From the IMG/VR virus record IMGVR_UViG_3300033073_001516, positions 64,001-128,000 of that record: a DNA stretch of 64,000 nt; one strand, 5' to 3'. Source of the stretch: a virus. Its lineage: Duplodnaviria > Caudoviricetes. The position numbers and the translations under genes are program-made. The notes below the pieces were generated by a model that did no database searches, was not told the DNA's origin, and saw nothing but the letters and a program-made list of their open reading frames with translations. Positions 11,598 through 46,706 of the stretch are shown here, one piece after another (position 1 is the stretch's first letter; each line of letters begins with the position of its first letter).

Positions 11598-14500
11598 TCA
11601 CAACACTAGAACTGCGAGATCTTCACGATTTCTTGTTGTACCATCATCAAAATATGGCACTGATGAGGTTGCGAATGTACTGATATTCTGCGAAAACGTC
11701 AGAGTTGGATCTACTGTTTGAGTTCCTGAAACAAACAAACATTTCACTGGTGGGTCGACGGATACGAAGGCTGTATCGTATCTCTGCTCTAGAGTATCTC
11801 TAAGATAGCCATGATGATTGGATGAGAAAGTCAGACGTGAATTTGCGGGTCTCAAGTTGGATATTCCGTACCTGAACGTTCCATTTCTCAGATGAAGACC
11901 AAATCCATTTAAAGTGTGGCCAGCGCGATGCTTGATGATGCCACAAGTCACTCCAAGAAACTCAGCACGATAGAGTGCGGCAACCTCTGTTGATGTTAGA
12001 GCTCGGCTCTTCCAGATATGAAGAGAGTGAACGTAGCCTCCTGAAAGCTCTTTGGTAGCGCTCGGTCCAGTAGCTGCGTTAGAGGCAGCAGCCAACCACA
12101 ATTTCGAAGCTGCGTTGTAGTTACTAACGCCACCAGGAGAGTTTGAATCATCGACCACGGTCATCTGACTACCGTTTAGGTAGACTTTTATACAATTTGC
12201 TCCGTTGTTCTCAGTCTCATCTCCGTTATAGACTATCGTAATTTGATTCCATTGACCGTCTTTGACTGCTGAGGAAGTCACAGCACCCTTCCAGTTAGAG
12301 TTGGAAGAATTTTGGAATATTTTAACATGCAGCTTATCGCTGCCATCGATATAGACGTTATACTCGTTGTATCCGCCGCCAGTGCGATATGATTTTTCGA
12401 GTAGTGTCTGATCGTTCCCACTTCCGCCTGAAGTTGAGGTGTAATAGAATGATACTGAAATTGTAAATGCTTCGTCAGTTGATGAGACTGCCGTTGTTCT
12501 TATCGAATTATCTATCGTAGCGGGAGTCTCACCGTATCTGACCTGACCTGAGAACGCTGCAGCTGCAAAGAAAAGTGAGTAGTCCTCGTTCAGACCAGCG
12601 AGAGGGACGCTTACGTTATTCGTAGGAAGTGGGTTGGAATTGAAGTCGAGATCGTAATTGTTGCTGGTGATATCTGAGACTATTCCACCGTCCGACATCG
12701 ACATGAAGTAGCTGGACACCAGACCACTGGTGAGATTGTATTCGCTAGGGGGGACGGGCAACGGGAAGATCGACTCTCGAAGATCATACAGAAACTTCAG
12801 CGGTGCGTCAGACACGAATGTGTAGCGTGTTAGGAAAGCGTAGTCAAGTGAGCATAGTCTCTTACCCGTTACCGTGATCGGAAAAGACATCACGTCGGTG
12901 TTCAGATTGTCTATCGCGTTTATGATCGCTGCGTTGTGTTGCACTCGACGTGTTGGATTTCCCTCGAATGGAAACTGCTTAAAGATCGAGTCATCACCAA
13001 CTTCAAGTATGTTATCGATACCAGTCGAATATCTGAGAACATTTCCGCCGTTGTACTTGTACTCTGACGCCTCTCCGCTCGTTAATATGACGTCATCGTA
13101 ATCAGGCAAGCAACTATCATACACGATTTCCGTGCTGTCGACGATCGATGCGAATCTCTGCAGCGATCCAGTTGTCCCAGCTTGACCGAGCGAGACTCTG
13201 GAGATCACTTTACGAGAGTTGTCCTGGCTCTGGGTAGTGAAGAACAAACCACCTGATACCGGCGTGAGCATGCTCCCAGTTACGATCTCATCCAAGTAAG
13301 AACCGTAATAAGATGAGATCGGTTCGATCTGGAAACGGTCGAGAACAGGTTCCGCGCCGATGAACTCGTGGATAGAATCAGAAGTTAGATCTTGATTGAG
13401 AGAATGGAGATGCTCGACTCCGTCTTTAATCATTGAACCGTACAGCGTCACTTTACACGGCTTACTCTTTATCCTTAAAAATGATCCTGTGATATGAGAA
13501 AAGTTCGAAGTCGAGGTAGCAGGAGCGACTCCCGCCTCTAATCCGAAGATCAATTCATCATCTGGCATCAAGATATAAGGAGAAACATCGGATTGAGGAG
13601 TCAATATCGAAAAATAATTTCCGTTGCTGCTCGAAGCTGGAGCGTTTGACTCTCCCCCAAATCTTCTAATTGACCTTGAATCTAGTCTCACAAATTTAGA
13701 TGATAAATTTGTAGAATCTCCGGCAGATCCGTTCGCAACTATCGCAAAATTGCTTGGATCTCGTGATAGACTCTGATAATTTTGATTTGAAGTTCCACCG
13801 GGCCAAGATGAGACCAAAAAATTAGTCCCGGTCCCGTCAGCTTGAGGAACGCACGAAAGCCCAGCAAATTGAGCGCTAGAAACAGCCGGCTTAAATTGCA
13901 TCTGAACGGATCCCGTGAATGATCCGACAGCGTATGTGTCTGTATACGGGAGGTTAAAATTGTGATTAAAAGCGGGAGTATGACGAAGAATTCCTTGTGG
14001 AGTAGACCCAGAGTTCCAAAATGCCATAGAGCTTGAAAAAATTAAAAACCTAGAAGATCCTGATACATCAGCTAAGCTGTCTAGATTTCTAGATTGCCTG
14101 GACTGTCTATAGGCAAAAAATGTATAATTGTCTATATCTCTAATCGATCCACTTTTGACATAGTTGGCTAAACTTGGAAAATGAGAAGAAGGTGCTACTC
14201 CACCGTTTATTCGCTGAGCCTCAACTTCATCGAAGCTGACTTCGACGGATTCTAGAAGAAATGGATAGCTGAGATACTCACTTAGCTTTATTGATTGCGA
14301 ACTAGTCGCGTGATATTTTTCTAAACTCGGAGCACCGTAAGTGAAAATTGGAGATCCTATTTTCGGATATCCCAAAATTTTTAATTGCTCTTCATCTTCT
14401 CCGAATCCAACGTCAGTTGTGAATTGAAATTGCAGCGGGAAAGTTCCGCTTAAAGTCGATGGAGTTGAATTATCAATCGCATAATCATAGTATAACGGTC

Positions 14501-15137
14501 CGCCAGTTGCTGGATCGATAGCGCCGATCTGCTCCCAAACACGACGTGAGAAATTGTAATAAAGAAATCCTGTATTATCGTCAGAAACCGGCTGTCCTTC
14601 AGCAATGTTTCTACGACGAACGTTTCTCATCACCATCGCATCAGTTTGCGGTGTGATGTCTATCTCGATTGCAATCTTAGAGCGAACCGGAGATGTGAAA
14701 CCAGGAAGAATATCAGGATCAGTACCGCTCAGGAAGAAATCAGTCGCAGGCATCGTTCGATTCTCATCGAATGGACCCATCTCCTCCACGGGCGAGTAAT
14801 GCAGATGAGCAGGCTGCTGGAATGAGCGGATCGGGGCAGTGATCGATATGTCAGATTGCTCACCGAGGATATCAACTGACTGCGTGATGAATGAGCTGTT
14901 CCTCGGCAACATCATCGGAAAGACAGGGTTTCCGTTTGAGACGAAATCTATCGTTGTCCCGTCATTGAAGCTGATCGGACGGGTGCCAGATCGAGTTGGA
15001 TCTCCAGTCCTTCTGACAGTCGGATACGAACCAGGATTATCATCAAGCTCGTTGAGCAGAATTCGAGGTGATCGAACTATGAATCCCGAACCTGTTACGA
15101 AGCTAGATCCAGTTACATCCTGTCTTATTCTCGGCAT
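11598..15137 (-). CDS. Large virion protein with a C-terminal LamG/concanavalin A-like domain
   Basis: 1179 aa; AFTISVSFY...DGQWNQITIVYNG...KVYLNGS...LHIWKSRALTSTEVAALY is a LamG pattern. Confidence 0.7.
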   Translation of the reverse strand: MPRIRQDVTGSSFVTGSGFIVRSPRILLNELDDNPGSYPTVRRTGDPTRSGTRPISFNDGTTIDFVSNGNPVFPMMLPRNSSFITQSVDILGEQSDISITAPIRSFQQPAHLHYSPVEEMGPFDENRTMPATDFFLSGTDPDILPGFTSPVRSKIAIEIDITPQTDAMVMRNVRRRNIAEGQPVSDDNTGFLYYNFSRRVWEQIGAIDPATGGPLYYDYAIDNSTPSTLSGTFPLQFQFTTDVGFGEDEEQLKILGYPKIGSPIFTYGAPSLEKYHATSSQSIKLSEYLSYPFLLESVEVSFDEVEAQRINGGVAPSSHFPSLANYVKSGSIRDIDNYTFFAYRQSRQSRNLDSLADVSGSSRFLIFSSSMAFWNSGSTPQGILRHTPAFNHNFNLPYTDTYAVGSFTGSVQMQFKPAVSSAQFAGLSCVPQADGTGTNFLVSSWPGGTSNQNYQSLSRDPSNFAIVANGSAGDSTNLSSKFVRLDSRSIRRFGGESNAPASSSNGNYFSILTPQSDVSPYILMPDDELIFGLEAGVAPATSTSNFSHITGSFLRIKSKPCKVTLYGSMIKDGVEHLHSLNQDLTSDSIHEFIGAEPVLDRFQIEPISSYYGSYLDEIVTGSMLTPVSGGLFFTTQSQDNSRKVISRVSLGQAGTTGSLQRFASIVDSTEIVYDSCLPDYDDVILTSGEASEYKYNGGNVLRYSTGIDNILEVGDDSIFKQFPFEGNPTRRVQHNAAIINAIDNLNTDVMSFPITVTGKRLCSLDYAFLTRYTFVSDAPLKFLYDLRESIFPLPVPPSEYNLTSGLVSSYFMSMSDGGIVSDITSNNYDLDFNSNPLPTNNVSVPLAGLNEDYSLFFAAAAFSGQVRYGETPATIDNSIRTTAVSSTDEAFTISVSFYYTSTSGGSGNDQTLLEKSYRTGGGYNEYNVYIDGSDKLHVKIFQNSSNSNWKGAVTSSAVKDGQWNQITIVYNGDETENNGANCIKVYLNGSQMTVVDDSNSPGGVSNYNAASKLWLAAASNAATGPSATKELSGGYVHSLHIWKSRALTSTEVAALYRAEFLGVTCGIIKHRAGHTLNGFGLHLRNGTFRYGISNLRPANSRLTFSSNHHGYLRDTLEQRYDTAFVSVDPPVKCLFVSGTQTVDPTLTFSQNISTFATSSVPYFDDGTTRNREDLAVLVL

Positions 15138-15138
15138 C

Positions 15139-45643: not shown

Positions 45644-45653
45644 CTTCGATTTT

Positions 45654-46706
45654 TTAATCTATAGCTTGTAAAACCATCTTGAAGTTCTTTCCCGTTCTGT
45701 TATTGACAACTCGAAGATAATCTTCTTCTTCCACTATGGTCCAATCACCGCGATCATTTCTTAGATGAAGATCTCCAGTATAGACGTTTGCAAATCTAAG
45801 AGAGCTAGATCCTAGATTTCTTGTTCTGTCTCCGTCTGGTATAACATCAGATGACAATCTTGCATTAACATACAGAGAGTCAGTTGCATCGACTCCAAGA
45901 TACGTCGAACCAGAAAGAAATAGATTTCCTGTTGACGTAGAAGCTTCAAGTTTTAAAAGCTGACGACCGACTCCACCAGAATTTGTCGCTCCGAGTACGA
46001 TCAAACCAGAGTTAGTGTTGTTGGTTAAGTAAAATTTTCCATCAGAAGCGTGAGTAACAGATGATTCTCCAAGAGAAGAGCTTAGATTAATAACTCCCTC
46101 ATCCTGTGAGTATATTCTGGCAGAAGAACCAGAGATAGATCCTCCGGCAACGAAATTTCCAGATCCGCTAACGTCTCCAGTTGATGAATTGATGAAAGAT
46201 GACGTGATCCCAGTTGAACTCTTCAGTATGATAGACCCGGACGAGACAACATTTCCACCGAACAGGGAGACTTTAGAAGATTCTGCTGCTACGTAGAAAA
46301 ATACGTCGCTTCCCTTATCTGACGGAGAGTCGATGGCTTCCGATCCCTTAAAAGCTGCGGAGCCTGTCGTGAAAATAGAGCCGTTCGTTGTGCTGCTAAA
46401 ATACGATACGCCAGCTCCGCTTCCGCTTATTGGATACGCAATTCCTGATTTGTTGTAGATCGTTCCTGATACTACCAAATCTCCGCCGATCGTTACAACA
46501 CCTCTTGTTGCAGTCCCGAAAGATCCGGAAGTTCCAGAAATGAATAGCCATGTGTCAGCGCTAACTGGAATTTTAGCGACGTCGTATCCGCCTGATTCAT
46601 CTGTCGCAGCGCTCAGTCCATACACAAGCAGAGGAGCATCTGCCGTGCTACCAGAGTTTATGATCTGGTTGACTCTTATCTGCCTTGTTCTGAAGTCTAC
46701 AGACAT
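45654..46706 (-). CDS. Tail fibre-like protein (paralogous C-terminus to 43871..45610)
   Basis: 350 aa; LGSSSLRFANVYTGDLHLRNDRGDWTIVEEEDYL. Confidence 0.75.
   Translation of the reverse strand: MSVDFRTRQIRVNQIINSGSTADAPLLVYGLSAATDESGGYDVAKIPVSADTWLFISGTSGSFGTATRGVVTIGGDLVVSGTIYNKSGIAYPISGSGAGVSYFSSTTNGSIFTTGSAAFKGSEAIDSPSDKGSDVFFYVAAESSKVSLFGGNVVSSGSIILKSSTGITSSFINSSTGDVSGSGNFVAGGSISGSSARIYSQDEGVINLSSSLGESSVTHASDGKFYLTNNTNSGLIVLGATNSGGVGRQLLKLEASTSTGNLFLSGSTYLGVDATDSLYVNARLSSDVIPDGDRTRNLGSSSLRFANVYTGDLHLRNDRGDWTIVEEEDYLRVVNNRTGKNFKMVLQAID

Follow-up and report, generated by a model that had tools for sequence, protein, structure and literature searches.

The tripeptide [ST]GS (Ser or Thr followed by Gly and Ser) is strongly overrepresented in baseplate and fiber proteins encoded in a 64,000-nt stretch of a Caudoviricetes genome (positions 64,001 to 128,000 of the IMG/VR record IMGVR_UViG_3300033073_001516; hereafter, the window), on both sides of a pair of family GT4 glycosyltransferase genes and an adjoining island of glycan-related genes. 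The excess is genuine and confined to virion proteins. Its best available explanation, to which we assign a probability of about one-half, is that the motif, refined below to Φ-[ST]-[G>A>S]-S-Φ (Φ, hydrophobic residue), is a putative O-glycosylation acceptor on the virion surface. The virus record as a whole is 151.7 kb long and is estimated by CheckV to be ∼45% complete.

A recount of [ST]GS in five open reading frames (ORFs) around the island (Table 1) exactly reproduced the hand counts of the original prediction, which had been made from the sequence alone (9, 11, 6, 12, and 8), giving 46 motifs in 3,727 amino acid residues compared to 9.9 expected from composition. The recount also agreed with its statements that PrkA has a single motif, that the gp6-like protein has none, and that the motif mostly follows V, I, L, F, T, or S, one of which occupies position −1 in 38 of the 46 sites. 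Each of the five ORFs is enriched individually (P ≤ 0.001 in 1,000 whole-protein shuffles each), and the proposed comparison with shuffled sequences gave the same outcome when residues were permuted only inside 25-aa blocks, which yielded 11.2 ± 3.2 motifs and a maximum of 23 in 2,000 runs. In an unbiased scan of all tripeptides, the top three were SGS (28 vs 6.3), VTG (14 vs 2.1), and TGS (18 vs 3.7), and permuted words of the same composition were less enriched, with 7 copies of SSG and 12 of GSS compared to the 28 of SGS. The composition-based expectation, the permuted words, and the block shuffles rule out a global or local composition bias. Given that the motif sites are encoded by at least 20 distinct 9-nt codings, the signal resides in the protein and is not a DNA word; the many codon combinations across the 46 sites rule out a DNA-level cause of the excess.

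The description of these virion proteins as unrelated is correct only in part. The three baseplate proteins are mutually dissimilar, with no paralogy detectable when they are compared with each other, but the two fiber-like proteins are paralogs (95 aa aligned at 52% identity), and the LamG domain is common to two members of the set of five. A single shared repeat or domain is ruled out as the source of the motif in the three baseplate proteins and holds for the two fiber paralogs.

The excess also extends past the originally noted range, to two tail-sheath paralogs and three further unassigned ORFs that are encoded upstream of the window. The genes for the sheath paralogs are adjacent (positions 31009-34011 and 34045-37143 of the same genome, G000) and code for very large proteins of 1000 and 1032 aa with long N-terminal extra regions that bear [ST]GS. 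Eleven of their 12 motifs precede the region matching the sheath profile, and the twelfth is found near the start of that region; by likeness to T4 gp18, the motif-bearing portion is probably the exposed part of the sheath. The major capsid protein has 3 motifs vs 1.2 expected, all ahead of its HK97-like region. Within any one genome, the excess is confined to 3 to 10 ORFs, with the remaining genome at 1.2- to 1.45-fold, and the non-structural genes of the window phage show none. The collagen-repeat fiber protein encoded next to the motif-rich baseplate proteins has no significant excess, so the motif does not accumulate in every fiber protein.

Pooling of 36 non-identical motif-rich loci allowed the motif to be refined. 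Enrichment was 4.3-fold for SGS, 4.9- to 5.6-fold for TGS, 2.2- to 3.3-fold for SAS and TAS, and up to 2.6-fold for TSS and SSS, which corresponds to a preference for G over A over S at the center. The respective values for SGT and TGT were 2- and 1.3-fold, indicating that Ser is preferred over Thr in the third position, and AGS, GGS, NGS, DGS, and VGS reached only 0.7- to 1.4-fold, indicating that the first position must be Ser or Thr. Residues F, V, L, and I are favored at position −1, where the acidic residues D and E as well as K are found at 0.3 of the expectation, and W, F, L, and I are favored at position +1, where proline is at 0.1; hydrophobic residues account for 49% and 48% of these two positions, respectively, compared to the background of 32%. 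Together, these preferences define Φ-[ST]-[G>A>S]-S-Φ, a position specificity that appears compatible with an acceptor site.

In alignments, the whole triplet is conserved in 39 to 46% of orthologs compared to 10 to 18% for other G-centered triplets (46% and 18%, respectively, in the 1120-aa baseplate protein). In the motif-rich lineages, conservation of the residues flanking the motif glycine is 0.57 to 0.77 for S/T and 0.50 to 0.67 for S, compared to 0.32 to 0.45 and 0.29 to 0.37 for the flanks of other glycines, and the motif glycine itself is conserved no better than other glycines. These alignments point clearly to selection that targets the two hydroxyl residues and not the glycine. The location of the motifs on predicted structures was likewise as anticipated, with ∼15 of 17 copies in two AlphaFold models placed in loops, in hairpin turns, or at strand and helix ends. 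In the model of the 499-aa protein (predicted local distance difference test [pLDDT] score of 88.5), all six motifs are at secondary-structure boundaries: two are at helix caps (one N-cap, one C-cap), two are associated with strands (a short strand and a strand start), and the other two occupy a loop and a hairpin turn. For the 1120-aa protein, model quality is mixed (pLDDT of 61), and most of the 11 motifs fall within loops or at the ends of strands.

The same excess is widespread among related phages. Eighty IMG/VR loci were retrieved around homologs of the gp6-like protein, and 48 of them were scored. Proteins encoded downstream of gp6 in these 48 loci contain 765 motifs vs 167.5 expected, those encoded upstream 41 vs 48, and the gp6 homologs themselves, which are 48 non-independent sequences, just 5 vs 25.6. 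Approximately 35 relatives, including Microcystis phage Mel-JY01 and Flavobacterium phage immuto, the closest cultured relatives by the gp6-like protein (33 to 35% identity), show a 4.5- to 4.9-fold excess downstream of gp6; individual lineages show 3- to 7-fold each. The excess spans the clade, even though the proteins are only ∼23 to 40% identical. The clade also includes a cultured phage of Rhodothermus, RM378, in which a cluster of hypothetical, probably structural, genes encodes 21 motifs vs 3.8 expected. No excess is seen in fiber and baseplate proteins of phage T4 (7 vs 9.0) or of cyanophage S-CAM4 (13 vs 10.2), the latter being equally rich in S, T, and G, which rules out a general trait of myovirus baseplate and fiber proteins. 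Searches of T4 and S-CAM4 for genes of the GT4, GT2, and short-chain dehydrogenase/reductase (SDR) epimerase families revealed none.

The original prediction had also anticipated that the motif would co-vary with glycan genes, and the comparison bears this out: the excess is 4.5- to 4.9-fold in genomes with the island, 1.6-fold in those with only the GT4 pair, 0.6-fold in those with none of the three gene families searched (GT4, GT2, and SDR epimerase), and ∼1-fold in T4 and S-CAM4. The island-less clade (loci L105, L077, L083, and L096-L104), in which the GT4 pair directly abuts the next core gene, has 50 motifs vs 31.8 expected, ranging from 2.7-fold in L105 to 0.7-fold in L098, and its 145-kb, 80%-complete member contains no SDR epimerase or GT2 gene. 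In the gp6 tree, a quick reconstruction rooted on T4, whose branch is very long, this clade is nested among motif-rich lineages. In clade B, a group of jumbo phages whose complete genomes measure 312 and 401 kb, there are 14 motifs vs 22 expected and no match to GT4, GT2, or epimerase families. Alignment columns that read SGS or TGS in the rich lineages (in one of these columns, SGS in 34 of 38 sequences) read DGL, RGV, DDA, or QSL in the motif-poor lineage, which retains the glycine in 47 of 97 cases and has lost most of the hydroxyls; the fold therefore does not need them. Neither the poor lineage nor clade B was found to have a substitute enriched motif, such as a shifted sequon. The comparison thus indicates that the excess is present wherever the island adjoins the conserved GT4 pair and fades where the island is gone. 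This is the dependence on transferase genes that an acceptor site would be expected to show, in the form of a correlation.

All long relatives, Mel-JY01, immuto, and RM378 among them, carry the GT4 pair and its PD-(D/E)XK nuclease-family neighbor. The first GT4 (27202..28443) shows 38 to 78% identity in all these relatives and always adjoins the second GT4 and the PD-(D/E)XK gene; RM378 additionally carries a UDP-galactopyranose mutase. The PD-(D/E)XK/GT4/GT4 triad can be regarded as a core unit (positions 26042-29319 of the window and 8212-11893 of L256, the RM378 locus, as well as in the genomes G023, G031, G033, G007, and G008) that is mostly preceded by PhoH, from the window phage through RM378. 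The GT4 genes are better conserved than those for the baseplate proteins.

In motif-rich genomes, a glycan-gene island of 9 to 16 kb adjoins the GT4 pair (positions 22155-30923 in G031, about 29000-39300 in G033, 135248-142403 in G008, 500-7701 in G007, and 29279-43852 in the window). It occupies the same slot by the pair in distant relatives and is found on the opposite side of the pair, together with two fiber genes, in the window. The majority of its genes code for glycosyltransferases and nucleoside diphosphate (NDP)-sugar enzymes; an FAD oxidoreductase is also encoded. The window island combines a sugar-nucleotide block (29279..34614) with a variable part (34611..43852) that includes several further, unassigned ORFs. 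Island genes are almost wholly non-homologous between lineages, as in hypervariable loci of the O-antigen type. The Fringe-like GT31 shares the window island with the GDP-mannose dehydratase and the GDP-fucose-synthase-like enzyme, a combination that in animals serves protein O-fucose elongation. In the 93%-identical sister phage G001 (contig of L014, positions 122333-123970), the homolog of the 553-aa glycosyltransferase is broken by one in-frame TAA.

If the motif is an acceptor, soluble phage-encoded glycosyltransferases would be expected to attach sugars, at a late stage of infection and within the host cytoplasm, to virion proteins, namely, outer baseplate proteins, fibers, and exposed sheath domains, on the assembled or folding virion. 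The island would supply the donors (GDP-6-deoxyhexose or fucose, UDP-galactofuranose, and a uronic acid or pentose precursor) and the elongating transferases. The first transfer could be catalyzed by the conserved GT4 pair or by an unrecognized island enzyme. The hypervariable island would then diversify the glycan in the fashion of O-antigen loci, and the resulting coat might contribute to shielding, stability, or control of adsorption. In a coherent but unproven version of this scheme, the GT4 pair draws on an island-dependent donor to prime the sites, and the coat is useful only once elaborated. A bolder formulation, which we put forward tentatively and consider less likely than not, is that a clade of large aquatic T4-related phages coats its tails with O-glycans at Φ-[ST]-[G/A]-S-Φ, the GT4 pair priming, the island diversifying, and the code decaying after island loss. 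This would be the first acceptor motif for phage virions and the first virion "glyco-code" readable from the genome.

The central claim of the original prediction, that a phage glycosyltransferase glycosylates the virion at [ST]GS, receives partial support: the in silico tests all came out in the predicted direction, but no initiating glycosyltransferase was found, and the GT4 pair outlasts the motif. Several observations weigh against virion glycosylation. The only glycosyltransferases conserved clade-wide are the GT4 pair, which is still intact in the lineage from which the motif has been lost, so its members either are not the initiating enzymes or have another role. The 553-aa glycosyltransferase is ruled out as a universal initiating enzyme because it is absent from G007, G008, G031, Mel-JY01, and immuto. 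A comparison of the gene content of the motif-rich G033, used as a reference, with that of three additional rich genomes and of the poor G023 revealed no universally co-varying glycosyltransferase, and the island holds no universal one; the sole island gene present in all five compared motif-rich genomes and absent from G023 is SDR epimerase-like. The co-variation itself consists of two contrasts plus outgroups and could be mimicked by shared ancestry or host switches, and in LR756508 the excess near gp6 is weak (6 vs 2.5) despite the presence of GT4 and epimerases. Several motif copies occupy canonical structural positions, and the one at residue 294 of the 1120-aa protein coincides with the F-x-G-x-[IL]-D-E strand of LamG. 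No description of an [ST]GS acceptor, or of glycosylation in any of the phages Mel-JY01, immuto, and RM378, emerged from literature searches.

The main rival explanation, which we consider unlikely and yet the most serious of the alternatives, is a lineage-specific structural habit: Φ-[ST]-G-S-Φ would cap or turn β-strands in the β-sandwich and fiber domains of the clade without being modified and would have spread by inheritance and domain shuffling. The co-occurrence with glycan genes would then reflect shared ancestry or host coincidence, with these genes acting, for example, on precursors of the host envelope at the inner side of the membrane. Such a habit would explain why the motifs are found at secondary-structure boundaries and hairpin turns, where G and S are common anyway, why both flanks tend to be hydrophobic, and why one copy falls on a conserved LamG strand; the paralogy of two of the five proteins, the survival of the GT4 pair where the motif is lost, and the reliance of the glycan-gene link on two contrasts are also easily accommodated. 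However, the island-less lineage and clade B manage without hydroxyl flanks at homologous positions, and the β-rich fiber and baseplate proteins of T4 and S-CAM4 do without the excess. A structural role would also be expected to conserve the turn-forming glycine, whereas it is the S/T and S that are conserved, and to enrich such good turn formers as AGS, NGS, and DGS, which are not enriched. The six different local contexts inside a single protein and the gradual fall of the excess after island loss are equally difficult to reconcile with it.

A different modification of Ser/Thr, which we regard as improbable, could be phosphorylation (e.g., by PrkA), the addition of a glycerol-phosphate or other phospho-linked group via the cytidylyltransferase, or the work of a host enzyme. 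The selected part of the motif, two hydroxyl residues, would suit any of these; the window encodes a PrkA/SpoVR/DUF444 module, and the island includes the FAD oxidoreductase and the cytidylyltransferase, related to glycerol-3-phosphate and heptose-1-phosphate enzymes. Nevertheless, G007 and G008 are near-complete and motif-rich but lack the PrkA module, so that it does not co-vary with the motif and a PrkA phosphorylation site is unsupported; the island consists mainly of glycosyltransferases and NDP-sugar enzymes; and a host enzyme would leave the link of the motif to phage glycan genes unexplained. Least probable is a statistical by-product of S/T/G-rich low-complexity patches or redundant repeats, because, although the five proteins contain 12 to 17% S and up to 13% G and the pooled counts include related sequences, the 46 motifs far exceed the output of block shuffling, permuted words are less enriched, motif spacing is irregular with no tandem periodicity, the equally S/T/G-rich S-CAM4 fibers lack the excess, and every lineage shows it by itself.

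Other targets of the glycan genes were also considered. A hydrophobicity scan and Pfam matches revealed no polytopic membrane proteins, initiating phosphoglycosyl transferases, flippases, polymerases, or ABC exporters in the island, whose ORFs have at most one hydrophobic 19-mer each, either N-terminal or in a Rossmann motif. With soluble products and no polytopic membrane protein, unaided export of a polysaccharide would be impossible, so that a self-sufficient exported-polysaccharide locus of the O-antigen or capsule type is unsupported. It is possible that the island enzymes act on host lipid-linked precursors. A ThyA-family hydroxymethylase (PF00303) was not found in the window phage record (45% complete) or in the complete or near-complete, motif-rich genomes G007, G008, G031, G033, and G034. 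The DNA nucleosides of immuto are dA, dC, dT, and formyl-preQ1 (fdPreQ1), which replaces dG, with no glycosylated nucleoside reported (PMC10516641). These two observations make DNA an unlikely target and leave T4-type base glycosylation by the island unsupported.

Among known systems, O-glycosylation of virions has been described in the mycobacteriophages Che8, Corndog, and Myrna (Freeman et al. 2023, Cell Host Microbe, as cited in PMC12619734 and PMC12801897). Common to both systems are soluble glycosyltransferases that the phage encodes beside its structural genes and, as the proposed target, virion proteins in the host cytoplasm. The mycobacteriophage glycans are described as decorating siphovirus capsid and tail-tube subunits at their C-terminal tails (PMC12619734). 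In contrast, the putative modification discussed here would occur at a short internal motif over the baseplate, fibers, and sheath of large myoviruses; the motifs are internal and do not form a C-terminal acceptor of the mycobacteriophage type on the major capsid or tail-tube protein.

One of the window GT4 proteins matches, among solved structures, the chlorovirus GT4 B736L (3oy2, E = 5e-8). Chlorovirus PBCV-1 glycosylates its virions independently of the host, with its own cytoplasmic transferases and sugar-nucleotide enzymes (GDP-mannose 4,6-dehydratase and a fucose-synthase-like enzyme) and at atypical acceptor motifs. It differs in that it is a virus of eukaryotes and that its glycans are N-linked to a single major capsid protein, as opposed to a putative O-link on many tail proteins of a phage. 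The autotransporter heptosyltransferases Aah and TibC, which modify AIDA-I and TibA, respectively, are cytoplasmic and sequon-light and act on serines in short loops between the β-strands of a repetitive β-structure, an acceptor geometry that resembles Φ-[ST]GS-Φ at strand ends. However, these are GT9-like heptosyltransferases, unlike the GT4/GT2/GT31-like enzymes seen here; the target classes are unrelated, and no equivalog of the ADP-heptose pathway was found.

The general O-glycosylation system of Bacteroidota likewise uses a three-residue motif, D-[ST]-[AILVMT], on many unrelated proteins, and some hosts of the phage clade belong to Bacteroidota or Rhodothermota (those of immuto and RM378). 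That system transfers a lipid-carrier glycan in the periplasm, whereas the phage island lacks membrane components; furthermore, the −1 position of the phage motif is hydrophobic, with D/E at 0.3-fold, and the motif is selected according to phage genes. The GtfA-GtfB system of serine-rich-repeat adhesins also relies on an adjacent pair of GT-B-type enzymes, one of them a GT4, that starts O-glycosylation of Ser/Thr in the cytoplasm and is followed by variable elaboration through accessory transferases. It differs in that its acceptors are long S-x-S-x repeats and not isolated motifs, and sequence likeness to the window genes is at the level of the GT4 family.

To our knowledge, virion glycosylation has been documented for only a few phages, and no acceptor motif has been described for it; literature searches for a phage virion acceptor motif found none. 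If the glycosylation reading is correct, it would become possible to predict, from the sequences of hundreds of environmental phage genomes, which virion proteins are glycosylated, and a function would emerge for many unexplained glycosyltransferase clusters of aquatic phages, unlike the usual assignments to host-surface or DNA modification. Fibers and a baseplate coated with glycans would also matter for host recognition and particle stability and for how phage-host range is interpreted. Even without any sugars, a three-residue motif that is gained and decays in a lineage-specific manner, in many different folds, would be an unusual evolutionary signal.

Nearly all genes in the window are on the minus strand (Table 1). 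From right to left, the PrkA/SpoVR/DUF444 module is followed by PhoH, two fiber-like genes, the glycan island, the PD-(D/E)XK gene, the GT4 pair, gp25-like and gp6-like genes, baseplate-distal proteins, and a collagen-repeat fiber, so that the GT4 pair and the ∼15-kb island are placed between baseplate and fiber genes, on one strand throughout. The C-terminal 95 aa of the larger fiber-like protein are similar to cyanophage structural proteins.

Table 1. Features of the window discussed in the text, in order of position
Feature	Position	Strand	[ST]GS, observed vs expected	Remarks
Collagen-repeat (G-x-y) tail fiber protein, 928 aa	8798..11584	-	5 vs 2.9	Not significant
Baseplate-distal protein, 1179 aa	11598..15137	-	9 vs 2.44	C-terminal LamG (Laminin_G_3)
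Baseplate protein, 1120 aa	15994..19356	-	11 vs 2.14	N-terminal LamG
Baseplate protein adjoining gp6, 499 aa	19356..20855	-	6 vs 1.24	Several β-sandwich/CBM-like domains
gp6-like baseplate wedge protein	20855..22693	-	0	Anchor gene of comparative loci
Second GT4 of pair	26042..27244	-		37.5 bits vs cutoff of 26.4
First GT4 of pair (Glycos_transf_1)	27202..28443	-		59.2 bits vs cutoff of 26.4
PD-(D/E)XK nuclease-family gene	28492..29319	-		Conserved neighbor of GT4 pair, also in RM378
UDP-galactopyranose mutase	29279-30376	-		Above NCBIfam cutoff
GalE-like SDR	30418-31302	-		
NDP-sugar dehydrogenase	31302-32297	-		
Cytidylyltransferase	32307-32723	-		Related to glycerol-3-phosphate/heptose-1-phosphate nucleotidyltransferases
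GDP-mannose 4,6-dehydratase	32705-33688	-		Above NCBIfam cutoff
GDP-fucose-synthase-like SDR	33685-34614	-		
GT2/GT92-like gene	34611-35390	-		
Methyltransferase	39383-39973	-		
Fringe-like GT31	39996-40685	-		Family-level match only, E = 4.5e-6
Glyco_trans_1_2 gene	40687-41547	-		
553-aa protein	42191-43852	-		C terminus matches phrog_14945 glycosyltransferase
Fiber-like virion protein, 579 aa	43871..45610	-	12 vs 2.25	
Fiber-like paralog of the preceding, 350 aa	45654..46706	-	8 vs 1.87	

The DUF444 (YeaH-like)/SpoVR/PrkA module is complete in the window (positions 52264-56708). It is also present in the relatives G031 and G033, with 51 to 64% identity, and absent in G007, G008, and G023. 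In the loci L077-L173 (e.g., L087, positions 13203-21767), the gp6 neighbor is followed by a giant baseplate protein of >2800 aa, which reaches 3469 to 3696 aa in complete genomes and is conserved only over its N-terminal 900 to 1250 residues.

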